This document shows, piece by piece, positions 9,691-40,462 of a stretch of 64,000 bases of DNA. Position numbers and translations under genes: made by a program. Position 1 is the first letter of the stretch. The number at the start of each line of letters is the position of its first letter. The notes beneath the pieces are model-generated. The model ran no database searches and was not told the origin of the DNA. It saw only the letters and a program-made list of their open reading frames with translations. The DNA is from Nitrospirales bacterium (GTDB lineage Bacteria > Nitrospirota > Nitrospiria > Nitrospirales > UBA8639). The stretch lies in contig OY729426.1 in assembly GCA_963422365.1 (NCBI GenBank), positions 1,563,380 through 1,627,379 of the forward strand, in the 5' to 3' direction.

Positions 9691-10577
9691 GTGAATGATA
9701 AAGGATCAGAGCATTCATTTCGTCTCGTTATTGTCAGTGGTTTGTCCGGCTCAGGAAAAACCCAAGCGCTGAAATGTCTGGAGGATATCGGGTTCTTCTG
9801 TGTGGACAATCTCCCTCTGGCGCTGTTCCTCGCATTTGCAGAATTTTGTGGCCAACGGAGTCACCCTGTGCGAAAGGTTGCCTTGTGTTTTGGTATTCGC
9901 GCTCGCGATTTTTTTCGGATTTTTTTGAAAATCTCAAACGGCTCCAAGCGAGTGCCTCCATCGTGGAATTGTTGTATTTGGAAGCGAATAATGTTGTCTT
10001 GACACGTCGTTTTTCTGAATCCCGTCGTCCCCACCCTCTCCTGCCTCAGCAGTCCGTTCTTGAAGGGATCCGACTCGAACGACAACACCTTGCCGAATTC
10101 CGTTCTCGCGCTGACCAGGTGTTGGATACCTCAGAACTGACCGTGCATGAACTTCGAGAGTGGATGGTGCAACAGTACAGCGATGAGGGCTATCGGCACT
10201 CGATGAAGGTATCCGTGATGACGTTTGGGTATAAGTTTGGCGTGCCCTACGAAGCCGATTTCGTGTTTGATGTTCGATTTTTGCAAAATCCGCACTTCGT
10301 TCCTGCCTTGAAGCCGTTAACGGGAAATGACAAAAACATTCAGCGTTATGTTCTCGAAAACAAAAAGGCCCAAGGTTTTCTTGAGCACATGAAGAGTGTT
10401 TTTGAATTTCTCCTTCCGCTGTTTGAACGAGAACAGAGAAGTTATTTGACCATAGCCATCGGCTGTACAGGTGGGAGGCACCGTTCCGTCGCGATTGCGA
10501 ATGAGGTAAAGAACCTGTTTGCACGATTAGGTTGCAGGGCCACACTCAGCCACCGAGACGTGGATCGTACCGAATAG
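9691..10577 (+). pseudogene. rapZ: RNase adapter protein RapZ (YhbJ), reading frame broken once at a T7 run
   Basis: The N-terminal part, with Walker A (SGLSGSGKT) up to ...[13 protein letters not shown], lies in the frame of ORF 9484..10002. The rest ([10 protein letters not shown]...GCTGGRHRSV...) lies in the frame of ORF 9774..10577. The junction is the T7 run at 9909..9915, and one extra T would restore a continuous RapZ. GTG 9691 is the proposed start. Confidence 0.85.
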
Positions 10578-24731: not shown

Positions 24732-25013
24732 TTATCGCACACTTTTCAATTTCCCTGTCACGAATTTGTGTAATGTGCTCGAGATGAGGGTTTGGTAGGG
24801 CATCCCTTCCTTTGCTGCTCTTTTTTGAATGTTTGCTAAATCGCGTGACGAGATCCGAATATTAATGCGCTTGTCCTTCTGAAGGAAATTGTGCGCGGCC
24901 TCTTCTAATTCGCGCTTCGCTTCTTTGAAGTTGTTGATGCTTGTAAATTCCCCGTGTTCAAAATCCTGAAGGAGCTTCACTTCTTCTCTGTCTAAGTTGA
25001 GAGGGTTTTTCAT
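24732..25013 (-). CDS. brnA: BrnA-type antitoxin (ribbon-helix-helix C-terminus)
   Basis: INIRISSRDLANIQKRAAKEGMPYQTLISSTLHKFVTGKL is the typical BrnA/CopG-like C-terminus. A 4-nt overlap with the upstream toxin gene. Confidence 0.7.
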   Translation of the reverse strand: MKNPLNLDREEVKLLQDFEHGEFTSINNFKEAKRELEEAAHNFLQKDKRINIRISSRDLANIQKRAAKEGMPYQTLISSTLHKFVTGKLKSVR

Positions 25014-25279
25014 TTGAGATACTCCTTTGTCGCTTTCCTGCTCGGGATGATGGTTTTGAGAAATCGTGTTCCTTTCTGCTTCACGTATGGGACTAAGTAC
25101 ACGTACCCTTCCATGTTCAGAACAATGATTCTCTGATTCGGATACTGGGACTCATTGGGATGCCTGATGATATCCAGGACATCGCCGCTCTGAATGTGAA
25201 AGACGACATCTTCAAAACTTACGCCCCGTGTCTTCTCAAGAATCTCATTCTTTTTGTTATCCCAGTCAAATTCATGCAT
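25010..25279 (-). CDS. brnT: BrnT-family (DUF497) ribonuclease toxin
   Basis: MHEFDWDNKKNEILEKTRGVSFEDV... and ...TIIPSRKATKEYLK match the BrnT signature (FxWDxxKxxxNxxKHGVSFEE ... IISARKAT). The track ORF extends to 25405; starts at 25279 or 25291 are preferred. Confidence 0.7.
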   Translation of the reverse strand: MHEFDWDNKKNEILEKTRGVSFEDVVFHIQSGDVLDIIRHPNESQYPNQRIIVLNMEGYVYLVPYVKQKGTRFLKTIIPSRKATKEYLK

Positions 25280-25439
25280 GCATGAAACCATCTCATGTTG
25301 TGTGCCTTTTGTCAACATTTCGCACAATGGAGGGCCGTTGATGGCTCTTGATTGATCCTCCTGAGACCGCGCTTGGACCAAGGAGCGGTTCAGTTCCTGA
25401 AACAAGCAAAGGAAATCGAAAACCTCGACTCCGCCGGGC

Positions 25440-25964: not shown

Positions 25965-26086
25965 ACGGATTTCTCTCTCGATAACGAGGTCTTGATGAAA
26001 AACATACGGTCCATGTCGACCGTGAACGCGTTTATGCTTATCAGACGAGCACCGAAGAATGTCGTTCTTGAAGAACGTATAGCGCT

Positions 26087-26731
26087 CTAGCCTTGCTTAG
26101 CCACCCTTGTCGGACCTTTTAGCTGTTCGGCGACTTGCTGAATGGATTTGTCGAGCCATTGCTCGATGACCGGAGAGAGAAATCCTTTTCCATTGAGTTC
26201 GAAGTCAAGGCCGGCCAACATTTTGGAATACGGTCCCGGGCCATAGAGGCGATTCGAGATGACCAGCACTCTGCCGGGTTTATTGCCTTCTTCAATGAAT
26301 TCGCGCACTTCCTTTACTGCTTTCTTCCGTAACTTAGGCCAATCTTCCCGGACGGTCATGGCCTTGATGGCTTTCAGTTTCGCGCAATGCGGATCCTGTC
26401 GGAGTTTCTCGATATTGGCGTTCATCACCGACAACCAGTGTTGATTGCTTTCGTCGGATCCCGTACCATGAGCAAGAAGAATGACGGTTTCCTCTGAAGG
26501 GTTTTGACTGATCTCCATAATCCGTTCATGCAACACCTGCGCCACGTTGGCCTCTTCTTCGTATCCTCCGAAAGTGGAAAAAATTGCGGCGCTTCGAATC
26601 TGTTGGGGTGGAGTGCGGCCTTGTTTTAATTCATCGAGATACTCGTCGGAAAGCCCAAGGATGTAATCCGTTCTGGGTTTCATGGTATTGATGAGCCCGT
26701 ACATTCTTCCGAACACGATTTTCTTGACACC
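26087..26731 (-). CDS. Continuation of the CbiX-like protein in the same frame after the TGA at 26732..26734
   Basis: Codons directly after the TGA read GVKKIVFGRMYGLI..., completing the expected CbiX motif (L..G..kiv..P/..). A fourth half-domain follows (VILLAHGTGSDESNQHW...). Confidence 0.55.
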   Translation of the reverse strand, partial: GVKKIVFGRMYGLINTMKPRTDYILGLSDEYLDELKQGRTPPQQIRSAAIFSTFGGYEEEANVAQVLHERIMEISQNPSEETVILLAHGTGSDESNQHWLSVMNANIEKLRQDPHCAKLKAIKAMTVREDWPKLRKKAVKEVREFIEEGNKPGRVLVISNRLYGPGPYSKMLAGLDFELNGKGFLSPVIEQWLDKSIQQVAEQLKGPTRVAKQG

Positions 26732-27745
26732 TCATTGTTCAAGACGAGATACGGCATCTTGAATGATAGCCGTATCTCCCATGCCATACGCCAGTTCAAT
26801 TTGATAGCGGCGCGTAAGGGGTGCGATGATCTTTTCCACGGCGTCATTGTAAGGCTGGGTGGAACCGTGAGGCATAATGACGACCCCAATTTCACTTGCA
26901 GATGCCTCTAGATACTGATTCGCGGTTTTCTTGAGCCACAAGAGCAGATTGGGATGAGGAGCGATCTCCGATGGTTGAAAAACCACATTCAGCTTCTGAA
27001 ATCTACGTTGTATCCAGTTCGTCATGGCCATCATGTGATCGAACTTGACCCCAATGAATGCCGGGACCACCAAGGTGCGCCCTTGCATGGCAGCCTGTTC
27101 CGTGATGTGCGTGGTAATCTCTTTATTTTTTCCACGGGCTTGTTCCGCTTCACGGTGATAGTAGATGACGACTTCACTGTCTTGGAACGACTTATATCGT
27201 TGGATATACTGAATCAACGGTGTTAAGTCGTCCTTAATGGCCTGTTCGCTTTTTTCGTCACGGGCCCCGATTCCCACCAAAATGAGTCGTTCGTTTTGAG
27301 TCGATTGGCTGATTTCTTCAACCCGATCGAGAAGGATCTGACCGATCAGGTAGCTCCCTGCCATCGCCGGAGCCCATTCGATACTTAGATCGTCGGCATG
27401 AGTAGGCAAGAGGTCACGGACCGCATGTAGTTGCGGATCGGCAGCGGAAAGAAACAACGGAACAGCGACGACAGATGTCGCGTTCAGTGACCGTAATTGG
27501 TTCAGAGCTTGTTTGATGTAGGCCGTATACGCTGTCTTATGACTTCCATACTTATTGCCGACAAAAGCCAGGGACGCAGGATAATGAAGCTGAAATTCCT
27601 CGACCAGTTTCTTGGTTTCTTGATTCCCCAGAAACCCCCGGTCCGGCGCTATGACCAGAAAGCCGGGATGCGATTGTGCCGAAACGGCGAGGGGACCGAG
27701 ACTTATCATCGTAAGGATAAATAGAGCAGTCCACAGGTGTTTCAT
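26732..27745 (-). CDS. Secreted tandem CbiX/SirB-like (class II chelatase fold) protein, N-terminal part ending at an in-frame TGA
   Basis: Signal peptide MKHLWTALFILTMISLGPLAVSAQS. Repeated CbiX-like half-domains follow (...VVAVPLFLSAADP..., ...LILVGIGARDEKSEQ...LVVPAFIG..., ...GVVIMPHGSTQPYNDAV...). Confidence 0.6.
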   Translation of the reverse strand: MKHLWTALFILTMISLGPLAVSAQSHPGFLVIAPDRGFLGNQETKKLVEEFQLHYPASLAFVGNKYGSHKTAYTAYIKQALNQLRSLNATSVVAVPLFLSAADPQLHAVRDLLPTHADDLSIEWAPAMAGSYLIGQILLDRVEEISQSTQNERLILVGIGARDEKSEQAIKDDLTPLIQYIQRYKSFQDSEVVIYYHREAEQARGKNKEITTHITEQAAMQGRTLVVPAFIGVKFDHMMAMTNWIQRRFQKLNVVFQPSEIAPHPNLLLWLKKTANQYLEASASEIGVVIMPHGSTQPYNDAVEKIIAPLTRRYQIELAYGMGDTAIIQDAVSRLEQ

Positions 27746-27920
27746 TGTAGCCCTCCTTATTTTTGAAATAGCGACTCAATTTCAATTTTGGAGAGAACAT
27801 GGTATCAGGTGGGGGTAATGGTCGTACATGTTCATTCACCTGAAAAAGATGTTCAATGACCGGCCATAGTGAAGAATGCGGCCATACAGAGAACGGGGTG
27901 TCTGCTCAATCGGCGCAGCA

Positions 27921-30900
27921 TCATGGTTGCTCGTTATCACGTTCAATCCAGGCAAGGATTTCCTTGAGATTCGCCTTGGCTTCTTGATAGTCAGGGGCGA
28001 TTTTCAAGACGTCTTGATAATGCGTGATGGCTTCTTGGTATTCCCCGGATTGAGCCAGGCTATTGGCTAAATTGAATCGAGCGCCAAGTGAGGTGGGTTC
28101 GCGCGTCAGTACTTCGCGGAACAACGTTGCCGCGGATTGATAGAGCCCCATTTGATAGCGGGTTAACCCCAAGTTGAACCAAACGGATGTGATCTGGGGC
28201 CATCCGGGATTCAGGCGAATGATGGACTCATAGAAATCCGCCGCCAGCGGATCGTTTCCCTGCCGTGATTGGCTCAAGGCAAGGTCGAACCGCACATTGA
28301 GGTTCTGTGGGTTGATCTGCAGCGCTTTATGCAACAAAGGAATGGCAGCGTCGTATTGTTCTTCGAGAACCAGTTCATGCCCTTTGGCTGTCCAGATCTG
28401 TTCAAGAAAGGTTCGGGTTTGATAATTCGAAGGATGCAGTTCCCATGATTGAGCGTACAGCTCAGTGGCCTCCTCTATGCGATTGTCGGCACGGGTCACG
28501 ATGCCCTCGGTCAGGAGTTGCGCCGCGGTGGAGACCCGAGCTAATCGCTCGAGCATGTCGTCGTTCGAGGACGGGTCGACATGCACGATGTCGGTGAGGG
28601 GACGGAAGTGGGGGAGGAGGCTTGCCAATGTTTCTGCGGCCAGGGTCACCGTATTCAAGGCGTTGAAGGCAAGCGGCGTCGAGTATTCAATGAAGCGGTT
28701 GTCATCGGTATTCAGCGGCGCATCGTGCGTCCAATTCCGGATTGCCGAGCCGTGGCTCATAAACAGGCCTAACAGATTGTAGGGATCGGAATCGAGCTGA
28801 CGCATGCCGCCCAATGGATCGTGGACTGCGTATCGTTCTAGGAAGCGTTGCAAATCAATGTGGAGGGGATCGAGTCCGCCCAAGATCAACAGGTATCCGC
28901 CGTTCAACCACAGGGAAGTCTCCGGAAACACGGATTGGAAGGTACGGACCAGGGTCCGCAAATCGTCCGTACTCAACTGATTGATGGTGATCCATTGGGC
29001 CATGAGGCCGCCAGGAGCCAATTTGGCGCGACATTGCCGATAATGTTCTTGGGTGTACAGACTGCCGACTCCGGTTTGGTAGGGGAAGAACAGTTCTTGT
29101 ACGATGAGGTCGTACGTGTTGCGCGTTAACTTGATAAAGTTGCGTCCGTCTTGTTCGACGACCCGGACCTTGGGATGCTCAAGCACCTGAGCATTCGCCT
29201 GAGCAAAGAAGCGTTTTGCCGCGTCAATGACGCCCAGAGAGATTTCGACCACCGTGACCTGTTCGACGTCCTCCCGTAAGGTCGGTGAAAGGGTAATGCC
29301 TGTCCCTAATCCCACCACCAGCACGCGTTGAGGATCGGGATGCAGGAAAAGCGGCAAATAGCCTTGAATACGCTGAACGCGAACCTCTTTGGCGCCGCTG
29401 CCCCCTTCCTGTCGCAGCCGGCTGGTCAGTAGCGTGCGGGCCAGGGTTTTTCGGTCTTCAAAGACCTCCGTGACTCCCAAGGCATCTTCATGATGATACA
29501 GCACCGCCTGGGAAGTCCCTGCCGCAGCGTGCCGGAATGTAAGGTCTGCGTTCGTTGCAAGCCAGGCAAGCACTCCGAGAAGAAAAAAGAAGGCGAGCCC
29601 CTTGCCCCATAAGTTGGGAATCGTGGACCGGTGTTGCACGGGCTTGCCCCCTGCGGATGACAAGGGAAGGCGCCAGACAAGCAACGCCAGCGTGCAAACC
29701 AGACAGGCTGAGAGCACAAGCCAGGCATGGGTGAGCCCTAAAAAGATAAGAAACCCAAAGGTCGTGAGCACGGCTCCGATCACGGCTCCCCAATTATGCC
29801 ACGCATACAATCGCCCTAGAGGAGAAATAACGCCTGCATGAGGCTGATTGGGTGATGAGACTGTCGCAAGGTCGCAGAGGCTGCAAAAGGCCATGCCCAA
29901 TCCAAACATGGGTACACCGAGAATCGTCACGGTTAATAACGCGTCGCTCAGAAGAAACTGCAGGATCGTCAACTCCTGCGGGCGTAGCTCTTGGAAGATT
30001 CGATCAAACAGAGAAGCAATATTACCCGCAATGGGCACAACCGTGAGTTGAGCGATAAGGGCGATGAAGAGCCCCCATAGGAACAGCCCGGGCTGGTTCT
30101 GCACCTTTCCCCTGAGCCAGAGGTAGATTCCGGAGCCGAATCCCATCATGAGCAGCACCGTGGTTAAGAGGATGCCCTCCGCATAGGCAGTGATATTGAC
30201 AATGAGCCAGACGTACTGCGCCCCGATGATCTCTAACGAAATAATGAGAAACCCAACGACGGCCCCTAGCGTTTGAAGGACGGATAACGACAGCATCCCG
30301 CTCGCGACGTTTGCGAGTTGTGGCTGTCTCTCCAGGGCTAGATGGGCACGGTCGGACGCCCGGTAGCTTCCGACAAAGGCGGCCAAGGCGAGAACAAGGT
30401 TCGTCATCCCGAGTGCCAGGGAGGTGCTCTTCAATCCTAGAGAGGGAATCAAAGCGAGCGAAGCGAGCGCCCCCAATCCTGAGGCCAGGAGGCCGATACA
30501 GTAAAGCAGACCGGGTTTGGTCGTGTGTGAACGAGCAAAGAATTGTGTGAGCAAGGAAGCCAGCACGGGAAAGTTCATCCCGTGCAGGGTGGTGATAGGA
30601 AGAAGAAGTAAACCTACATAAAGACCTCTCACCAAAAGATGCCGGAGCCCTTCGGTTTCCGGTGCCATCAGTACATAGAGGTGGTCTCCCCAGGTCAATA
30701 AAAAAGGAAAGGCTATTCCCAAGAGACCCATCAGGGTTTGAAAGAGGGCGACGAGGCGATAGGTGACGCGTCCGGCAGGTTCGTGCTGGTCTTGAGGCGT
30801 ACCTTTCCATCGAGCGATCACGTAACTGCCGAGGCCCAACCCTGCCATGAACGTGGCTAAGACGATGCCGAAGGCGGTCACCGTCATGCCGATAGACGCG

Positions 30901-31001
30901 GTCAACAGCTTGATCCATACGACCTCATAGGCAATGCCCACGAAAGAATGAAGAGCGTATAACAGCAGAATCAGCGTGCTCATGGAAAAAAGGGCTGGCA
31001 T
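27921..31001 (-). CDS. Fused polytopic membrane / spermidine-synthase-like (PABS fold) / TPR protein, 1026 aa
   Basis: About 500 aa of TM helices, then a Rossmann methyltransferase-like domain (RVLVVGLGTGIT...VTVVEISLGVIDAAKRFF...VVEQDGRNF...YDLIVQELFFP). C-terminal TPR repeats (ALQINPQN..., AIRLNPGW..., VLKIAPDYQEAKANL). Confidence 0.8.
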   Translation of the reverse strand: MPALFSMSTLILLLYALHSFVGIAYEVVWIKLLTASIGMTVTAFGIVLATFMAGLGLGSYVIARWKGTPQDQHEPAGRVTYRLVALFQTLMGLLGIAFPFLLTWGDHLYVLMAPETEGLRHLLVRGLYVGLLLLPITTLHGMNFPVLASLLTQFFARSHTTKPGLLYCIGLLASGLGALASLALIPSLGLKSTSLALGMTNLVLALAAFVGSYRASDRAHLALERQPQLANVASGMLSLSVLQTLGAVVGFLIISLEIIGAQYVWLIVNITAYAEGILLTTVLLMMGFGSGIYLWLRGKVQNQPGLFLWGLFIALIAQLTVVPIAGNIASLFDRIFQELRPQELTILQFLLSDALLTVTILGVPMFGLGMAFCSLCDLATVSSPNQPHAGVISPLGRLYAWHNWGAVIGAVLTTFGFLIFLGLTHAWLVLSACLVCTLALLVWRLPLSSAGGKPVQHRSTIPNLWGKGLAFFFLLGVLAWLATNADLTFRHAAAGTSQAVLYHHEDALGVTEVFEDRKTLARTLLTSRLRQEGGSGAKEVRVQRIQGYLPLFLHPDPQRVLVVGLGTGITLSPTLREDVEQVTVVEISLGVIDAAKRFFAQANAQVLEHPKVRVVEQDGRNFIKLTRNTYDLIVQELFFPYQTGVGSLYTQEHYRQCRAKLAPGGLMAQWITINQLSTDDLRTLVRTFQSVFPETSLWLNGGYLLILGGLDPLHIDLQRFLERYAVHDPLGGMRQLDSDPYNLLGLFMSHGSAIRNWTHDAPLNTDDNRFIEYSTPLAFNALNTVTLAAETLASLLPHFRPLTDIVHVDPSSNDDMLERLARVSTAAQLLTEGIVTRADNRIEEATELYAQSWELHPSNYQTRTFLEQIWTAKGHELVLEEQYDAAIPLLHKALQINPQNLNVRFDLALSQSRQGNDPLAADFYESIIRLNPGWPQITSVWFNLGLTRYQMGLYQSAATLFREVLTREPTSLGARFNLANSLAQSGEYQEAITHYQDVLKIAPDYQEAKANLKEILAWIERDNEQP

Positions 31002-31793: not shown

Positions 31794-33977
31794 TTAGGGA
31801 AGGTTGATGGAGTGCCACACCGACACCTTGGGATTGATCCCTGCCTCGGGAAGAAATGATAAGTGTCGACGGTAGTTTCGATCCGTCAGGTTATCGACTC
31901 CGAGATTGACTTGGAATCCTTGACCCCAGGATTTCGGAAGGTCGGGGAGCAGCACTTCAACGGGTTTCAAGGTGGCGTAGATATCGAAGAGCACATAGCC
32001 TCCGGTTGGTTGCACAGCAGAGCCTGGGACCACCACGGTTCGGTCCTGGTCGCCCGTAATTTGTGTCCTCCCCCCAATGGTTAATCCCCAGGCAGGGTAT
32101 TGATAGTCAATGCCCAGCACCGCTCGTTTTTGAGGAATGTTTGTCAAGGGCAGTTCATTGGTTTCATCGGTCCCGTGCGACTGACTGTAGTTTCCAGACA
32201 GGGTGACATTCTCAAGCGTGCGCCATTCGAATTCTGCTTCCCACCCCTGAATTAAGGCATTTGTGATATTGACAGGGGTAAAAAAGAATTCCACGGTCCT
32301 TGGTGGAGTGAATATAGTAGCAATTTCAAGGGAAATTAAATTCCTGAGCTTGTTTCTGAAGTAGGCTCCCTTAAAAATGAATTGATCGTTATTGGAAAGC
32401 ACTTTTGGTAATTTCACGCGGAACCCCGCGTCGATGTTCCGGCTACGTTCTGGGCTCAGGTCTGGATTGGCAACAAAAACGCCACCAGGAAAATGAGTGC
32501 CTGCGATAAAGAGGTCACCGAACGTGGGTTGACGGAATCCATGGGCATAGTTCGCTTCAAGGAACAGGAAGTCTGTGACCTGAATCACCGCGCCGACTTT
32601 CGGGTTGAGGACGCCTACGGATTTGGTTGATTCGCCGGATGTTTCATTTCTCCAATGATCCCAGCGAATGGCGGGAATGAGGGTAATGCGATCGAAGAGC
32701 GTGATTTCATCCTGCAGATACAGGGCGAAGACATCAGACTTCGCATCCGGGAAATACAGGCGGCTCCCTGTAGGGGGGAAAATAGGTCCACTCCTCCCAA
32801 AACCTATGGGAAAAGAGGCAGTGCGACTTCCTCCGCTCCTTTGAGTATTCCGGAAAAATTCAGACCCGAAGGTTACAATATGATGGTGCGTGGAAAGATT
32901 GCCGAAATTCATGGAATTTCTGAGATCATACCCAAACGTATCGAAACTGATATCGTCTCTTTTCCGATTATTAACCTGAGTTTCCGTGATATCCAATGTT
33001 GTGAGATAGACAAATCCTTGAAGATTCAAGTACGGATTCGCCGGATTGTTATGCGTGTATCCTAAGCGGTACGTGATTTGATGATTCACTCGGTCGGCGA
33101 TACGAGACGTTGCAGGCACAGTAACCAGACCCGTATCAGGATCAATGTCAGGAACAGCAATAGAGTTGGTGTCGAAGGGGATCTGCGCGGCTTGTCGAGT
33201 GGCTTGAATGGAAAATTTGGCTTCGTCATGCGGAGTCGGTTTCCACACGAGCTTGCTCAAATTGGCTGCGGTATCTTGCGCGGAGTTGGCTAACCGCCCC
33301 AAATCGCCGCCCAGGCGAACGTTTTCTCCGGCCCGAAAGGTCCCGCTGGCCATGACTTCCAATTGGTTGGTGAGGCGAGCCGATAAAGTGGTCGTGGAGA
33401 GGAGTTCTTCATTCTGGTATTGGTAGCCGAATTTTTGCCGCATGCCGTACCGCATGTCCGGAGCCAGATAATCGGATGGGTCCTTGGTCACCATGGCCAC
33501 GACCCCGCCCAAGGCTTGGCTGCCGTACAAGGCCGAGCCCGGTCCGCGAATCACCTCCACCTGTTTGAGTTGATCCATGTCGAAAAAGATGCGACCTTTG
33601 TGCCCAGATTGGAAGTTGAGTCTGACGCCATCCACCAACGTGAGTACTCGCGCACCTGCCAACCCTCGAATATTCGGTCCCTCTCCCATGGTTCGTGGGC
33701 CGTCCCCCGAAGCAACGCCTGGTTCATAGCGCAACACGTCGTCCAGACTTTGCGCTTGACGTTGTTGAAAATAGTCTTGAGTCAGGACGCTGACTTCGCC
33801 TGGCGTGGTCAACGGGTCCCGTTCGGTTTTGGTTGCGCTGACCGTCACTTGCGCAAGTCGTAGCTTGACTTTCTTGGGTTGCGAGTCTTCGGCGTCTTCA
33901 GCATCTTGTCCATAGACCTGTGCTGAGGAAAGCCAGAAGAGCACAAGGACAGCCAAGAGACAAAATTTCTTTGTCAT
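31794..33977 (-). CDS. TonB-dependent outer-membrane receptor
   Basis: Signal peptide and a plug domain (TKTERDPLTTPGEVSVLT...SLDDVLRYEPGV...IRGL...VDGVRLN...IEVIRGPGSALYGSQALGGVV), then a long beta-barrel. 727 aa. Confidence 0.9.
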   Translation of the reverse strand: MTKKFCLLAVLVLFWLSSAQVYGQDAEDAEDSQPKKVKLRLAQVTVSATKTERDPLTTPGEVSVLTQDYFQQRQAQSLDDVLRYEPGVASGDGPRTMGEGPNIRGLAGARVLTLVDGVRLNFQSGHKGRIFFDMDQLKQVEVIRGPGSALYGSQALGGVVAMVTKDPSDYLAPDMRYGMRQKFGYQYQNEELLSTTTLSARLTNQLEVMASGTFRAGENVRLGGDLGRLANSAQDTAANLSKLVWKPTPHDEAKFSIQATRQAAQIPFDTNSIAVPDIDPDTGLVTVPATSRIADRVNHQITYRLGYTHNNPANPYLNLQGFVYLTTLDITETQVNNRKRDDISFDTFGYDLRNSMNFGNLSTHHHIVTFGSEFFRNTQRSGGSRTASFPIGFGRSGPIFPPTGSRLYFPDAKSDVFALYLQDEITLFDRITLIPAIRWDHWRNETSGESTKSVGVLNPKVGAVIQVTDFLFLEANYAHGFRQPTFGDLFIAGTHFPGGVFVANPDLSPERSRNIDAGFRVKLPKVLSNNDQFIFKGAYFRNKLRNLISLEIATIFTPPRTVEFFFTPVNITNALIQGWEAEFEWRTLENVTLSGNYSQSHGTDETNELPLTNIPQKRAVLGIDYQYPAWGLTIGGRTQITGDQDRTVVVPGSAVQPTGGYVLFDIYATLKPVEVLLPDLPKSWGQGFQVNLGVDNLTDRNYRRHLSFLPEAGINPKVSVWHSINLP

Positions 33978-34234: not shown

Positions 34235-34711
34235 TTAATATTGCAAAGAAATGGTCAATGATAATCCGCGTGCTGGAAGCTCGAAGGAGGTTTCTTGAAA
34301 GGTAGGAGGGCCCATGACAAGCGGGTTCAGACTCAGACCATAGCCTTCCGACGGCCACATGCCCAAGACTCGATTGAGCCTGGTGTCTCCGTTCTCATCA
34401 TGGTATGCCATGATCGCGTAGGGGCCAGGGTCGAGGTCTGTAAACTCGACAACGGCCGTCCCTTGTGTGGCTTTTGTTGCCTGAACTGTAAAGCATTGTT
34501 CTTCATCAGGAAACGAATCGGGTGAATTGAAAAGAACGACCCGAACGGGTTGGGCGCTGTTATGGATTCCTTCCACCGTGACATGGAGTGTGGCCGCGCT
34601 GCCGGGGGCGCTGGCTAACAGGCTGAACCCAAGGGGCCAGCAAATGATCCACAGCCATTTGATCATGCCGCGGAATTCACAAGAACGGATGCCTGCTTCT
34701 CCGGTCATCAT
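34235..34711 (-). CDS. DUF2141-family secreted protein
   Basis: LHVTVEGIHNSAQPVRVVLFNSPDSFP...GPYAIMAYHDENGDTRLNRVLGMWPSEGYGLS is the characteristic DUF2141 pattern. An ATGA overlap with the exbD stop. Confidence 0.75.
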   Translation of the reverse strand: MMTGEAGIRSCEFRGMIKWLWIICWPLGFSLLASAPGSAATLHVTVEGIHNSAQPVRVVLFNSPDSFPDEEQCFTVQATKATQGTAVVEFTDLDPGPYAIMAYHDENGDTRLNRVLGMWPSEGYGLSLNPLVMGPPTFQETSFELPARGLSLTISLQY

Positions 34712-35082
34712 TTGTGTTCCACGGCGAGGCTGATTTTGGTTAACCCTGCGCCTCTCACGTCATCCACGACGTCAACGAATCGCTCGAACTGAATAACGCG
34801 GTCGGCTCGAACGAGCACCAACGTTTCCGGCGGGAACCGCTGCAATTCACTGAGCACCGCTTCTTGTGGAAGGGGAGTACCATCCAAGAAGATGTCCCCT
34901 GAGGATGTCATCGTGATCGTAATCGGCTCGCTCGGTGCGGCGCTTGTTGCGTTGGCTTGAGCGAGATCCACGGGAATTTGTCCGGTCGAGATAAAGGTCG
35001 CCGTGGTTAAGACAATGACCAGCAAGACCAACATCACGTCGACCAGGGGGATGACGTTGATTTGATTCAGTTCATGATCCAT
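34708..35082 (-). CDS. exbD: Biopolymer transport protein ExbD/TolR
   Basis: INVIPLVDVMLVLLVIVL TM helix and a periplasmic domain. 124 aa. Confidence 0.85.
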   Translation of the reverse strand: MDHELNQINVIPLVDVMLVLLVIVLTTATFISTGQIPVDLAQANATSAAPSEPITITMTSSGDIFLDGTPLPQEAVLSELQRFPPETLVLVRADRVIQFERFVDVVDDVRGAGLTKISLAVEHK

Positions 35083-35497
35083 GGCTAACCTTATACTGCG
35101 TCAGCAACTCCGCCACCCGCCGCCGCAGTGCATTATTCATGACGACACAAGGAATGGCGACCAGCAGGCCGACTGCCGTGGCTTTCAGGGCCAAGCTTAA
35201 CCCGACCATGATCGCGCTCACTTCGATCGTCTTGGTCGTGCCCATGGTATGAAAGGTCACCATGATCCCGAGGACGGTTCCGAGAAGCCCGATATAGGGC
35301 GCATTTGCGGCAACGGTGCCGATCACGACGAGTCGTTTGGTCAATGAAATTTCCAATTGCTGCGAATCGGCAAACTGAGCTAGGGACGCGCGCCGGTAAA
35401 AGATCCAGCGCTCCAGGGCCACGGCAACGGCCCACATGCTCAACAGCAGAAGGAGCCCGATAATTCCATAATCAATGATGGTGTGTAAGGTGGTCAT
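35072..35497 (-). CDS. exbB: MotA/TolQ/ExbB proton-channel protein
   Basis: APYIGLLGTVLGIMVTF...ALKATAVGLLVAIPCVV is the typical ExbB core. 141 aa. Confidence 0.85.
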   Translation of the reverse strand: MTTLHTIIDYGIIGLLLLLSMWAVAVALERWIFYRRASLAQFADSQQLEISLTKRLVVIGTVAANAPYIGLLGTVLGIMVTFHTMGTTKTIEVSAIMVGLSLALKATAVGLLVAIPCVVMNNALRRRVAELLTQYKVSHGS

Positions 35498-35531: not shown

Positions 35532-35993
35532 TCAGGGGGCTTGTGTCGATCGTTGAGTATGGAGTTTCTCGGAAAAGGAAAGGGACCGAAGGCCCTTCAT
35601 GGGAAGGCGGATCTCGCCGAAGTCGGACTGTCCAATAAGCGTGACCTCCTTCGCCAGAGGAAATTCACCGGATTTGCCGTTTAACAGCTTGATGGTCAGA
35701 GCCTGACGACCCTTCATCGGGTGATCGGGTTTAACCTGAATTTTCGCGATCTGTTGAAATTTGACGTTGATCGTGGCGGCTCCGTGTTTGACCGGAATAT
35801 GCGTGATTTCATGTGGGACGAATGTCGTCTCATCAATTTTTTCTTCCCAGTAAAGCCGGGCGTTGGAGACCGACATCTGGACGCCTTCGGCATCGATGGT
35901 TTTAGCCGTAAACGTACTGTTTTGAGCGAGGGCATACGCGGGAAACACGATCGTCAGAGCCAGCAGTAAGGCAAAGAAATTGGCGCGGATCAT
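35532..35993 (-). CDS. Secreted hypothetical protein embedded in the TonB-ExbBD operon
   Basis: Signal peptide MIRANFFALLLALTIVFPAYALA, beta-rich, no recognised motif. The track ORF starts at 36035; the ATG at 35993 is preferred. Confidence 0.6.
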   Translation of the reverse strand: MIRANFFALLLALTIVFPAYALAQNSTFTAKTIDAEGVQMSVSNARLYWEEKIDETTFVPHEITHIPVKHGAATINVKFQQIAKIQVKPDHPMKGRQALTIKLLNGKSGEFPLAKEVTLIGQSDFGEIRLPMKGLRSLSFSEKLHTQRSTQAP

Positions 35994-36031
35994 GATGTAT
36001 TCTCCTTTGTGATGGGATGTCTTCTGAGTAC

Positions 36032-37339
36032 TCAACTCTTCTTTAAATTGAAGGCAATGGGAACGACGAGCCGTTCAATTTCGATGGATTCAGGCGGTTT
36101 CGTTGTTTGGAGAACCTTTTTCAACGTGGCAACGGCTGCCTTATCCAAGATGTCATAGCCTGATGGTTGCGAGATTTTTAAGGCTCGCACGGTTCCGGTC
36201 CTTGATAGAGAAATCGCGATGTGGGTGATCCCGGAATATCCAAGGCGTTTAGCGAGACGCGGGAATTCAAGGGTTTGGGAGATTCTCTCGCGCAGGCGCT
36301 TGCTAAAGGCCAAGAGTTCCGGAGAAAACCCGTTCGTCGAAACAGACCTGGAAATGGTTGTAGGACGGGCTTTTCTCATTTGGCGGGCATAATTGATCGT
36401 TGTCCGTGCCTGCATGACGGGCCTTCCTGATAAGAGTGCGGCAGGTTGACGCGCGGGCCTCGACAAAGTAGGCCTCACCGCTGGTTGAGACCCCCTGCGG
36501 GAGACGTGTTGTGTGTGTTTCATAACTTCCATTGCCGGAGCACGGGTTATCTTCTCGTCATGAGACGATAGGCTATTAACGGATTGCTGCCGGGGTGATG
36601 AGCTGACGGAGGCGACGACTGGTTGAGGCGCGACTACTTGCGAAGGCGTGTGAGTGATGCCGACGAGGCGGGCGGTGGGTTGTGGCGCAACCACTTGTGA
36701 AGCCATGTGGGTGATGCCGGCGGGTTGGGCGATTGGTTGAGAAGAAACCGTGCCGTTTCTGGTCGCAGGCTGAGAAAATGTTTGAGTATGCAGGACCGTC
36801 TTCGGTTGGGCCGTGGGTGTCTGGGTGATGCCGACCGGTCGTGCTGTTGGTTGGGGAGCGACCATGCTGGTTCTGGTTGCAGGCTGGGAAGCCGTTTGCA
36901 TGTGCAGGACCGTCTTCGGTTTGATCGTGGGTGTCTGTGCGACGCTGGTAGGGCGTGGCATGAGTCTCGGAGGCGGCTTCAGGGAAGGTTGGACAGTCGT
37001 CTGGGGAGTTACTGTTTGCCTGGTCTGAGTCTGTGTGCGTGGCTTGGACTGAGTCGGCTCCTTGGGAATTGGTTGGGGTTGCACCTGTTTCGGTTTGATC
37101 GTCGGTGTGGGCGGCGGTTTTTTCATCGTTTGACGATGGGTAGGAGGCGTGCGGGGTTGAGTGAGTTGAGGGGTGAAGAAGGAAACGGTGATAGGATCTC
37201 GCTCCACCCGTTGCGGAACGGGGAGCTTCTGCGAAAGGAGCAGGGCGAGGCCGATCATCATCGTATGCAGGCATACGGATAATCCCCAACTGCTCCAATA
37301 GTCTGGATGCTGTATCGCGCGGAAGACGGAACGTTTCAT
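36032..37339 (-). CDS. tonB: TonB-family energy transducer with an unusually long repetitive Pro/Thr/Gln linker
   Basis: N-terminal TM anchor (WGLSVCLHTMMIGLALLL), about 250 aa of P/T/Q-rich repeats and a C-terminal TonB_C-like domain (...EFPRLAKRLGYSGITHIAISLSRTGTVRALKISQPSGYDILDKAAVATLKK...). Confidence 0.8.
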   Translation of the reverse strand: MKRSVFRAIQHPDYWSSWGLSVCLHTMMIGLALLLSQKLPVPQRVERDPITVSFFTPQLTQPRTPPTHRQTMKKPPPTPTIKPKQVQPQPIPKEPTQSKPRTQTQTRQTVTPQTTVQPSLKPPPRLMPRPTSVAQTPTIKPKTVLHMQTASQPATRTSMVAPQPTARPVGITQTPTAQPKTVLHTQTFSQPATRNGTVSSQPIAQPAGITHMASQVVAPQPTARLVGITHTPSQVVAPQPVVASVSSSPRQQSVNSLSSHDEKITRAPAMEVMKHTQHVSRRGSQPAVRPTLSRPARQPAALLSGRPVMQARTTINYARQMRKARPTTISRSVSTNGFSPELLAFSKRLRERISQTLEFPRLAKRLGYSGITHIAISLSRTGTVRALKISQPSGYDILDKAAVATLKKVLQTTKPPESIEIERLVVPIAFNLKKS

Positions 37340-37903: not shown

Positions 37904-39073
37904 TTATGCTCCCCTGAATTTGAGAGCATTGGGAATGTTCGTTCGCATGGCGCGAACCGCCGGGAGCAATCCGCCAAGGGTTGCCATGAAGACGCCGAAG
38001 AGGACGCCCCATAGTGCGATCCGAGGAGTCAGGACAAAACCATAGGCCAATTCCGACATGGTGGCGTAGTTAATGGTTGACAGAGAAGTGAATTGAAGCA
38101 ATGACGCCAGCGCGATGCCCAGACCGGAGCCAAGGAGCCCGATCAAGACCGACTCAAACACAAAGAGGTTGAAAATCCTCCTTCGCGTGAATCCCATCGC
38201 ACGCAGGGTGGCGATCTCGGTGGTGCGATGCGCGACCGCGCCGTACATCGTGATCATGGCGCCGAGGCTTGCCCCCGCGCTGAAGAGCCCAGTCAGCATA
38301 AGCCCCATGGTTCGGATAAAATTCGAGAGACCGCCGGATCGTGATTCATAATAAGCGGCTTCTTTGGTAATGGCTATCTGCAGGCGGGGATCTTGGTCGA
38401 TACGGGATTGGAGCGTGGGAAATAGCGAGGGGTCGCGCGGTCGAAAAATGGCTGAAGAATAATACGTGCGTCCGAACGCGTCCATGAATCGATCGGCATC
38501 CCCCCACATTTCGGATTCAAAGCCGCTTCCGTCCGCTTCAAAGGTTCCGACCACGGTCCAGTTCTGTCTGCCGAACCGAAGCGTTTGGCCCAGATCCGCA
38601 TTTTTAAAGCGTCGAGCGATCTCTTTGCCCGTCACCACTTCATTCGTTCCGGGACGCCACATGCGGCCCTTCACAAGCTTCACTTGAGACCGCACGTGAA
38701 ACGAGTCTGCCGATCCCCCACGGAGGGTCACGTTGCCCGCGGTGTCTGTGCCCCGTTTTACTAAGCTGATGAGCACCACGATTTCAGGCGAGAACAGCGA
38801 GTGGCCGTTCTGTTGAGCAATTTCCGGAAACGTTCGTAAGATGGCCGTCTGTTCCCGATAGAGTCCGCTTCCGATCTCGGAGATGGCTCCTTTCCGAAGG
38901 ACCAAGACATTGTCCATGGAGCCGGTATTGACTAAGGTGTGCTCGACGCCGTGTGCCAACATTAAGACTCCCACAAAGATGAACACGACCAGGCCTACTC
39001 CCATGATCGTCAACAGGTTGGTGGTTCGTCGAGCGAGCAGGTGACGGAAATTGTATGAGAAAAAAATCTGCAT
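37904..39073 (-). CDS. ABC transporter permease, FtsX/MacB-type
   Basis: N-terminal TM, a large periplasmic domain and a C-terminal FtsX 3-TM bundle (EIATLRAMGFTRRRIFNLFVFES). Confidence 0.85.
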   Translation of the reverse strand: MQIFFSYNFRHLLARRTTNLLTIMGVGLVVFIFVGVLMLAHGVEHTLVNTGSMDNVLVLRKGAISEIGSGLYREQTAILRTFPEIAQQNGHSLFSPEIVVLISLVKRGTDTAGNVTLRGGSADSFHVRSQVKLVKGRMWRPGTNEVVTGKEIARRFKNADLGQTLRFGRQNWTVVGTFEADGSGFESEMWGDADRFMDAFGRTYYSSAIFRPRDPSLFPTLQSRIDQDPRLQIAITKEAAYYESRSGGLSNFIRTMGLMLTGLFSAGASLGAMITMYGAVAHRTTEIATLRAMGFTRRRIFNLFVFESVLIGLLGSGLGIALASLLQFTSLSTINYATMSELAYGFVLTPRIALWGVLFGVFMATLGGLLPAVRAMRTNIPNALKFRGA

Positions 39074-39084
39074 GGATCTGAGCC

Positions 39085-39245
39085 GTCAATTCCTATCCAG
39101 AAGACATAAGGGCGGCCCCCCCCGCTAACCTTGTCCCCGACATTTGTTATTGGGGAAACTGCGAGGATGACAATTGGCTGTTTCTGTCACTCCCGATATT
39201 TTTAGTCGGGAATCCAGTCTCCGCATCTCATGCGGCCTAGAAAAG
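39085..39245. repeat. Mosaic repeat units inserted between the two permease genes of one operon
   Basis: cttgtccccgacatttgttattggggaaactgcg; tcactcccgatatttttagtcgggaatccagt; ccgcatctcatgcggcctag (39221..39240). Confidence 0.8.
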
Positions 39246-39295
39246 GTGCGATCCCTCGAACCCTTGGGGGATCGTGCGGTTAGAACGGGCATCAT

Positions 39296-40462
39296 TTATC
39301 CCATATGACGGAGTTCATTCCGAATCCGGCTGCGGAGGCAGAGCACAAACGGGATGACTGCCCCAACCAGCCCAATACTTACACTGAGGACCACCGCCAG
39401 CATCGGCAACTGAGCAGGTAGCTCAAACACCGTGAAAAACCCTCCCAAATTGCTGGTGAGGAACATGCCGAACCATCTGCTCGCGGGATACAGAAGGGCG
39501 ACCCCAAGGATTCCCCCGAAAAGAGAGAGACATACCGATTCGCCGAAAATCAAGAGACTGAGATGAGGAGCCCGAAACCCCAACGTCTTCAAGATCCCGT
39601 ATTCATGATGCCGTTCGCGAACGCTCATTGCCATGGCATTGGCGACAACCAAGATACTGATGCCCAGGATGAGGAAAGACATGATTTCGACTACGCGAAT
39701 GATAGCGCCGGACATGGTCACCATGTTGGCTTGAAACGCCTGTTCTGTTTCCGTTCGGGTTTCCGCTATGGAATTGGTAAAGGCTTGATCGATCTCCGTG
39801 GAGATTTGTGCTGCCTGTTCGGGGTTGGCCATCTGAACCACAAACCAGCCCACGGTCCCTGCGCGAGCCGGATCGTCGAGTCGCCGGCGTTCGTCCACCG
39901 CGCTCCAGTGAAGATACATGCTCCCTTCAGACGCGGTCGGCGTCGTCCTTGTGTAGATTCCTCGTATCGTGAATTCCCAATCGCCCGGATAGAGACTGCC
40001 TTGCAGGCGGACAATGTCACCAATGTCCCAGCCGAGTTTGTCGGCGAGCTCTCGCCCCACGATGCAAGCCCGGCGATCCCGGAGAAAGGCGTTTCGTTGT
40101 GCCGGCGGCAAGTGAATTTCAGGATGGAGCCCTAAATACGAGGTCGACTCTACGGCATATCGAGGAAAAAATGCCTTGCCGTCCTTCCATCGTCCACCAA
40201 ACCAGTTGGCGTAGGAAACCCCGCTCACGCCGGGAATTGCGGCAATGCGTTGTTGATAGGCCACCGGTAGTTGAAAGGAAATGGAAACGGCATGCCGGGT
40301 TCTCAAGCGATCGGGCTGCGATCCCAGCGATCCCGCATACCAGGCCGTGACCGTTGTGCGAAGGAGACCAAAGGCCAGAATGATAATACACATGGTCAGG
40401 ATGGTTAAAGTCGCCCGGAGCGGATGACGGAGCACGTTACGGAAGGTGTAGCGAAGCAACAT
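39296..40462 (-). CDS. ABC transporter permease, FtsX/MacB-type (second copy)
   Basis: Same architecture as above (EYGILKTLGFRAPHLSLLIFGES). Confidence 0.85.
   Translation of the reverse strand: MLLRYTFRNVLRHPLRATLTILTMCIIILAFGLLRTTVTAWYAGSLGSQPDRLRTRHAVSISFQLPVAYQQRIAAIPGVSGVSYANWFGGRWKDGKAFFPRYAVESTSYLGLHPEIHLPPAQRNAFLRDRRACIVGRELADKLGWDIGDIVRLQGSLYPGDWEFTIRGIYTRTTPTASEGSMYLHWSAVDERRRLDDPARAGTVGWFVVQMANPEQAAQISTEIDQAFTNSIAETRTETEQAFQANMVTMSGAIIRVVEIMSFLILGISILVVANAMAMSVRERHHEYGILKTLGFRAPHLSLLIFGESVCLSLFGGILGVALLYPASRWFGMFLTSNLGGFFTVFELPAQLPMLAVVLSVSIGLVGAVIPFVLCLRSRIRNELRHMG

Follow-up and report, generated by a model that had tools for sequence, protein, structure and literature searches.

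A single in-frame TGA, probably a recent nonsense mutation, interrupts a gene for an exported protein with a duplicated chelatase-like fold in a Nitrospirales genome

We analyzed a 64,000-nucleotide stretch of the genome of an uncultured Nitrospirales bacterium (NCBI GenBank assembly GCA_963422365.1, contig OY729426.1, positions 1,563,380 to 1,627,379 of the forward strand), hereafter called the window, in which a gene for a CbiX-like, chelatase-related protein is interrupted by one in-frame TGA. The minus strand from 27745..26087 forms a single frame of 552 codons, and its sole break is the TGA at 26734..26732, which is codon 338. We consider it likely that this stop arose through a single C>T transition that changed CGA to TGA, as a very recent nonsense mutation that has left a pseudogene or null allele. 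The lesion is ordinary; the protein family that it strikes is uncharacterised, but its fold is recognisable. The features of the gene are listed below.

26087..27745, minus strand: the full interrupted gene, with 552 codons followed by its natural stop TAG (26089..26087), delimited by the frame, full-length homologues and intact orthologues in other species of the genus.
26732..26734, minus strand: in-frame TGA, codon 338, at a position where orthologues have Arg (CGA, CGC or CGG); the same TGA is present in a contig of the Logan assembly.
27752..27758, minus strand: Shine-Dalgarno sequence AAGGAGG, read from the sequence, 6 nt ahead of the ATG at 27745.
27674..27745, minus strand: predicted Sec-type signal peptide, residues 1-24, read by eye, with cleavage between MKHLWTALFILTMISLGPLAVSA and QS (...AVSA/QS).
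26906..27673, minus strand: module 1, residues 25-280, half-domains 1 and 2, assigned from Pfam CbiX, a PDB SirB profile and hhalign.
26108..26905, minus strand: module 2, residues 281-546, half-domains 3 and 4, assigned from invariant columns, a weak CfbA/CbiX(S) match at residues 287-344 and hhalign.
26714..26716, minus strand: GTG, the earliest possible restart codon, 5 codons past the stop; a GAGGTG overlaps the stop, 11 nt upstream of this GTG.
26006..26023, minus strand: terminator-like hairpin followed by a T-run, 64 nt past the natural stop, found by a consensus scan only.

An earlier note on this DNA had held that two same-frame open reading frames (ORFs), parted only by the TGA and five sense codons, are the pieces of one gene, and both the coordinates and the junction sequence agreed with that description. 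The upstream ORF (27745..26732) encodes 337 amino acids and terminates at the TGA; the five codons GGT GTC AAG AAA ATC follow, and then the GTG at 26716 starts an ORF of 209 amino acids that ends at 26087 in the same frame. Read-through would give the junction ...AIIQDAVSRLEQ-TGA-GVKKIVFGRMYGLI... and a joined product of 552 residues. When this product was compared with a collection of 5.8 billion proteins, more than 600 homologues were found; the 120 homologues listed were nearly all 550-577 residues long with a query coverage of 93-100 %, the closest showing identities of 74-81 % and the named Nitrospira sequences about 55 %. Within the genus, 10 of 37 other species carried an orthologue, in each case as an uninterrupted frame of 550-600 codons with 75-84 % identity and 0 internal stops, so that among the genus members carrying the gene only this genome has an internal stop. 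The order of the receptor gene, the gene for a large membrane/TPR protein and the CbiX-like gene was also identical in the 6 congener loci that were fetched. The intact single-frame orthologues (10/10 in the genus) and full-length homologues, together with the shared gene order, therefore identify the two ORFs as two pieces of one gene. The stop also splits one domain, as the earlier note had proposed, since codon 338 was located within the third half-domain of an AlphaFold2 model of the read-through product.

The orthologues also revealed what the stop replaced. In 6 congeners the codon at this position was CGA (three times), CGC (twice) or CGG (once), and the flanking CAA/CAG and GGN codons were conserved. 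The TGA is thus a single C>T transition away from CGA; seen on the plus strand, this genome has A at base 26734, and the relatives with CGA have G. Across 23 aligned homologues the column was occupied mostly by Arg, otherwise by Gln or Lys, and never by Cys. Among the explanations that the earlier note had offered, a nonsense mutation, for example from CGA, is thus the one that fits the orthologue codons best.

In the mechanism that we propose, an Arg codon CGA was hit by a C>T change that created the stop TGA at codon 338. As TGA is read as a normal stop in this organism, the main product would be an exported fragment of 337 residues, in which half-domain 3 is cut to half and half-domain 4 is missing altogether. 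Together with the latter half of the C-terminal module, such a fragment would lose the motif with the invariant H426, and the gene would probably be functionally inactivated. The translation start signals of the interrupted gene are intact. The gene is the final one of its cluster and a terminator-like hairpin lies downstream of it; therefore, the mutation should have no polar effect.

The mutation would be very recent, and the gene that it struck is accessory and missing from most species of the genus. Pairwise Nei-Gojobori estimates against the sister species (G001; dS about 0.28) gave dN/dS values of 0.250 for the part upstream of the stop and 0.255 for the part downstream, a pattern that alone does not discriminate between a recent pseudogene, an artefact and a gene that still functions. 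Neither relaxed selection nor secondary decay was thus found downstream of the stop. In a maximum-likelihood tree the terminal branches of this genome and its sister were 0.065 and 0.060 for the pair, the genome's own branch being no longer than that of the sister. No second lesion was present in the 1.66 kb of the gene, and every family-invariant residue was kept. Because there is no second lesion, the invariant residues are kept and the branch is not accelerated, the stop, if real, appears to have arisen very recently relative to the split from the sister species. The gene was not carried by 27 of the 37 other species of the genus, and a sample of 16 genomes belonging to other families of the order gave no match; Nitrospira proper carries it. 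The CbiX-like gene is therefore accessory and patchily distributed, and a null allele is unsurprising. In its single base change from the orthologous Arg codon, its working stop, its lack of recoding signals and its dispensability in most congeners, the case matches an ordinary nonsense null allele; it differs only in its recency, with no secondary decay or relaxed dN/dS visible.

A sequencing or assembly artefact is the alternative that survives best, although we regard it as improbable. According to this explanation the true codon of the organism is CGA (Arg), the gene is intact, and the T came in as a consensus error or a systematic base-call error. In its favour, the single 2.5-Mb contig was probably assembled from long reads, the gene shows purifying selection and no other flaw, and the conserved rapZ gene in the same 64-kb window is frameshifted beside a T7 run. 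The last lesion, at 9905-9925 on the plus strand, splits rapZ between two frames; the sister species has GAATTTTTTTC where this genome has GATTTTTTTC, which corresponds to a 1-bp deletion here. To set against this, Logan, an independent k-mer assembly of public sequencing runs whose contigs drop rare variants, contains a contig from run ERR11641160 (ERR11641160_3118596, 2512 bp) that is 100 % identical to 26478-28989 of the window, TGA included, and a truncated product of exactly those 337 residues is recorded in Logan too. This contig rules out an error that arose only at the polishing or consensus stage. Residual errors of long reads are mainly homopolymer indels, and substitutions in a non-repetitive context are rare among them; as an error, the TGA would be of this rarer kind (sequence context CAATGAGGT). 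A second Logan contig (ERR11641160_2789761) matches the window identically at the rapZ lesion, so that the two lesions are either both real or both systematic; either the genome has several true lesions or run ERR11641160 has systematic homopolymer errors. The base-call error that the earlier note had listed is accordingly made less probable by the identical TGA in the Logan contig.

Three points in these data weigh against a nonsense mutation. A minority CGA allele may exist beside the TGA, and a systematic read error common to the assembly and the Logan contig could still underlie it. The 1-bp deletion of rapZ at an A/T7 run raises the prior for residual sequencing error, though it is an indel and not a substitution. 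Finally, a gene kept functional by read-through would show the same unchanged dN/dS downstream.

It is highly improbable, in our estimate, that the gene remains functional, either with near-cognate decoding carrying translation through the UGA or with the protein made in two pieces, an exported part of 337 amino acids and a part restarted at the GTG at 26716. The 214 codons downstream are intact with a dN/dS of 0.255, the lesion is the only one, and the GAGGTG that overlaps the stop lies 11 nt ahead of the GTG; however, a recent lesion would leave dN/dS low in any case, and the stop is present in no orthologue, so nothing about it is conserved or programmed. No suppressor tRNA was found in the genome, which is one 2,495,695-bp contig with a completeness of 98.6 %. 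The tRNA-Trp has the anticodon CCA; there is no genuine tRNA with a UCA anticodon in the genome, its sole call being a tandem-repeat artefact; and release factor 2 (RF2) is encoded (509 bits). No structure that might stimulate read-through was found, and no signal for programmed read-through was seen around the TGA, a stop common to 0 orthologues. In the split version, the cut would fall inside a beta-alpha-beta unit according to the model, and the restarted piece, which would presumably be devoid of the signal peptide and of the first half of half-domain 3, would remain cytoplasmic, whereas its partner would be exported.

Selenocysteine, an option raised by the earlier note, is favoured solely by the in-frame position of a TGA inside a conserved domain; its probability is negligible, and together with a variant genetic code it is excluded by the contents of the genome. 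Genome-wide profile searches gave no match for SelA or for the SelB wing 3 domain, and the best match for SelD scored 81.5 bits against a cut-off of 125, so that selA, selB and selD, whose presence that option would call for, were not found in this 98.6 %-complete genome. No tRNA-Sec scored above the Rfam cut-off in the genome; the best match (43 bits versus 47) coincides with the tRNA-Ser(UGA) called by ARAGORN at 2116637..2116724. ARAGORN also called a tRNA-SeC(tca) at genome positions 813319-813402, outside the window; this locus consists of five tandem copies of the 17-nt unit AGCTTTTAAGAGTTYCA with 32 % GC, and the call was rejected as a false positive that could mislead automatic selenocysteine annotation. 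The homologues have Arg, Gln or Lys and never the Cys that would favour selenocysteine, and the site is a surface turn in the model, not a redox motif. No hairpin resembling a selenocysteine insertion sequence (SECIS) was found 3' of the TGA: the 76 nt that span it, starting 6 nt before, had a minimum free energy of -10.3 kcal/mol (z = +1.02), with 171 of 200 shuffles folding as well or better, and Rfam gave no match in the region of the TGA. Genome-wide recoding of TGA was likewise rejected: of the 1112 ORFs with 300 or more codons, 471 end in TGA, more than in either other stop; TGA is not in excess between long in-frame ORF pairs, and it is served by RF2.

The AlphaFold2 model of the read-through product, built on the alignment, had a predicted local distance difference test score (pLDDT) of 81 and a predicted template modelling score (pTM) of 0.81. 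It begins with a helix (residues 2-15) and a low-confidence linker, and codon 338 lies in the turn between a helix (325-337) and a strand (342-348) of the third alpha/beta half-domain. The signal peptide that the earlier note had proposed agrees with our by-eye reading, and the N-termini of all aligned homologues are comparably hydrophobic. As judged from secondary structure, the protein is composed of four beta-alpha units at about residues 27-145, 152-276, 286-412 and 419-542. Upon alignment of residues 25-280 with residues 281-546 by hhalign, we found a match with a probability of 95.9 % (E = 5e-9, 199 collinear columns) that pairs half-domain 1 with half-domain 3 and half-domain 2 with half-domain 4; it is therefore a complete chelatase-like fold duplicated in tandem. 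These results bear out the four CbiX-like half-domains, or two class II chelatase folds, of the earlier note, and in the model two Rossmann-like alpha/beta domains form the class II chelatase fold, which is predicted to be present twice.

The two modules are similar in architecture and differ in their motifs. In particular, module 1 has APDRG where chelatases have HGS, together with a PLFLS motif, and module 2 has the invariant motifs MPHGS (H293) and AHG (H426), one each in half-domains 3 and 4; the second His expected after strand 3 was not evident in the alignment. Sequence-level membership in the chelatase families appears marginal. The Pfam CbiX match scored 24.7 bits (cut-off 22) and covered only 39 residues (74-112), the NCBIfam CfbA match scored 29 bits against a cut-off of 120, a weak PDB SirB profile match covered residues 85-174, and the C-terminal module alone gave nothing significant against PDB sequences. 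The leading Foldseek matches of the model in the PDB were SirB, DR2241, CbiK^P, CbiK, HemH/CpfC and CbiX, with TM-scores (target) of 0.56-0.67; these included the following two:

Bacillus subtilis SirB (5zt7): E-value 2.6e-6, TM-score (target) 0.66.
Periplasmic CbiK of Desulfovibrio vulgaris (2xvx): E-value 6.9e-4, TM-score (target) 0.56.

The term chelatase, as used in the earlier note, is thus borne out for the fold and not for an activity.

The CbiX-like gene ends a cluster in which all genes lie on the minus strand; from its head, the order is two MacB-type permeases, TonB, an ORF of 167 amino acids, ExbB, ExbD, DUF2141, a TonB-dependent receptor, a 1026-residue protein and the CbiX-like gene. 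The genes upstream of the interrupted gene are as follows.

37904..40462, minus strand: a pair of MacB-type FtsX permease genes that opens the cluster.
36032-37339, minus strand: TonB.
35532-36035, minus strand: ORF of 167 amino acids with no family assigned.
35072-35497, minus strand: ExbB.
34708-35082, minus strand: ExbD.
34235-34711, minus strand: DUF2141 protein.
31794..33977, minus strand: TonB-dependent receptor of the haem/haemoglobin receptor subfamily, with Pfam Plug and barrel matches and a TIGR01785 score of 425.7 bits (cut-off 316.85).
27921..31001, minus strand: 1026-residue protein with a polytopic membrane N-terminal region, a spermidine-synthase-like domain and C-terminal TPRs, assigned from domain matches.

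The linkage of the CbiX-like gene to TonB-dependent uptake was kept in 6 congeners and 2 Nitrospira genomes. In Nitrospira sp. KM1 and N. lenta (loci L045 and L047) the orthologue directly follows TonB and lies between the same MacB-type pair, which precedes TonB, and a TonB-dependent receptor; the cluster comprises AraC, a MacB-type ABC system, this receptor, a Trans_reg_C protein, a second CbiX protein of 312 amino acids and a PepSY_TM protein, and ferritin genes are also close to the orthologue in N. lenta. The Nitrospira cluster has the appearance of a conserved island for the acquisition of iron or tetrapyrroles. The gene for the 1026-residue membrane/TPR protein adjoined the CbiX-like gene in every locus examined, and within the genus the two genes co-occurred strictly, with both present in 10 of 10 species and neither in 27 of 27, a pattern that is suggestive only, as relatives are not independent. 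The family may act with this spermidine-synthase-like/TPR membrane protein in this genus.

We compared the protein with known exported and cytoplasmic chelatase-fold proteins. CbiK^P of D. vulgaris Hildenborough binds haem, and its gene sits among metal-transport genes. It resembles the protein described here in being exported and in having the class II chelatase fold (2xvx); in contrast, it contains one chelatase fold in about 260 amino acids, whereas here two are predicted in tandem in about 550 amino acids, sequence similarity is not detectable, and module 1 has no HGS histidine. In Porphyromonas gingivalis, IhtB (FetB), a homologue of CbiK outside the cytoplasm, is encoded beside the TonB-dependent receptor IhtA, and it has been proposed as a reverse ferrochelatase that removes iron from haem (PMC12094164). 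IhtB is a single-fold lipoprotein of the outer membrane, encoded in an operon with an ABC importer, whereas the protein described here is predicted to be a soluble periplasmic tandem protein with the spermidine-synthase-like/TPR membrane protein as its conserved partner and no ABC importer adjacent. SirB and CbiX(L) (5zt7, 6jv6 and 4ccs) were the best structural match, and the Pfam CbiX match was above the gathering score; they are cytoplasmic single-fold enzymes, whereas the protein here would be exported and duplicated, with marginal sequence similarity. The predicted export signal and the linkage to TonB-dependent uptake are shared with CbiK^P and IhtB. In the literature on TonB-dependent systems of Nitrospira with CbiX, and on run ERR11641160, we found nothing relevant.

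With these comparisons in mind, we infer that the native protein may bind haem or another tetrapyrrole in the periplasm, or remove metal from it, downstream of the haem-type receptor. As a tentative proposal, it could represent an uncharacterised family of periplasmic proteins with a tandem-duplicated chelatase fold, most of them from Nitrospirales, that may partner the haem-type receptor as a shuttle or dechelatase for haem or tetrapyrroles, with the TGA allele as a natural knock-out; a variant in which efficient read-through keeps the protein in use is far less likely. Should such periplasmic handling of haem or metallotetrapyrroles be confirmed, it would bear on the acquisition of iron or cofactors by relatives of nitrite oxidisers. 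A secreted double chelatase fold that is conserved across Nitrospirales and lies within TonB/ExbBD/receptor clusters at every locus examined may merit the attention of specialists. The TGA itself is of little weight: annotation as a pseudogene or disrupted allele suits the gene best, in preference to a selenoprotein or two genes, and the case adds a further observation on gene loss among Nitrospirales with small genomes.

Several minor observations were made on the neighbouring genes and on related sequences. The haem-type TonB-dependent receptor is present as a single copy here and as 2-3 tandem diverged copies in the congeners G001 and G003 (L028 and L031); one of the G001 copies yields broken matches and may be decayed. 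The match to the 1026-residue protein is in two overlapping pieces in G019 and contains a TAG in G003. Beyond the CbiX-like gene, a BrnT/BrnA-like toxin-antitoxin pair (24732-25405, minus strand) lies between it and a PIN-TRAM gene; the BrnT match is shared with the sister G001 only, and the other congeners with PIN-TRAM nearby gave no BrnT/BrnA match in between.

In public data, split calls of the CbiX-like gene need not be true lesions. A relative in which the gene is called as pieces of 247 and 309 amino acids (the latter P0123) was considered as a second independent disruption and rejected, the cause being only a scaffold gap of 10 N (L048 2979-2988, ENA scaffold KELL22-1 scaffold_336). 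Finally, several congeners have a stand-alone frame of about 190 amino acids (L022, which is G003:C1:1772303-1772767, and L019, L020 and L018) with 42-44 % identity to the final half-domain (residues ~391-550), and from its sequence it looks like a CbiX(S)-like paralogue with a single half-domain. This genome has no such form, and G003 carries both the full-length form and the form of about 190 amino acids, ~6 kb apart.

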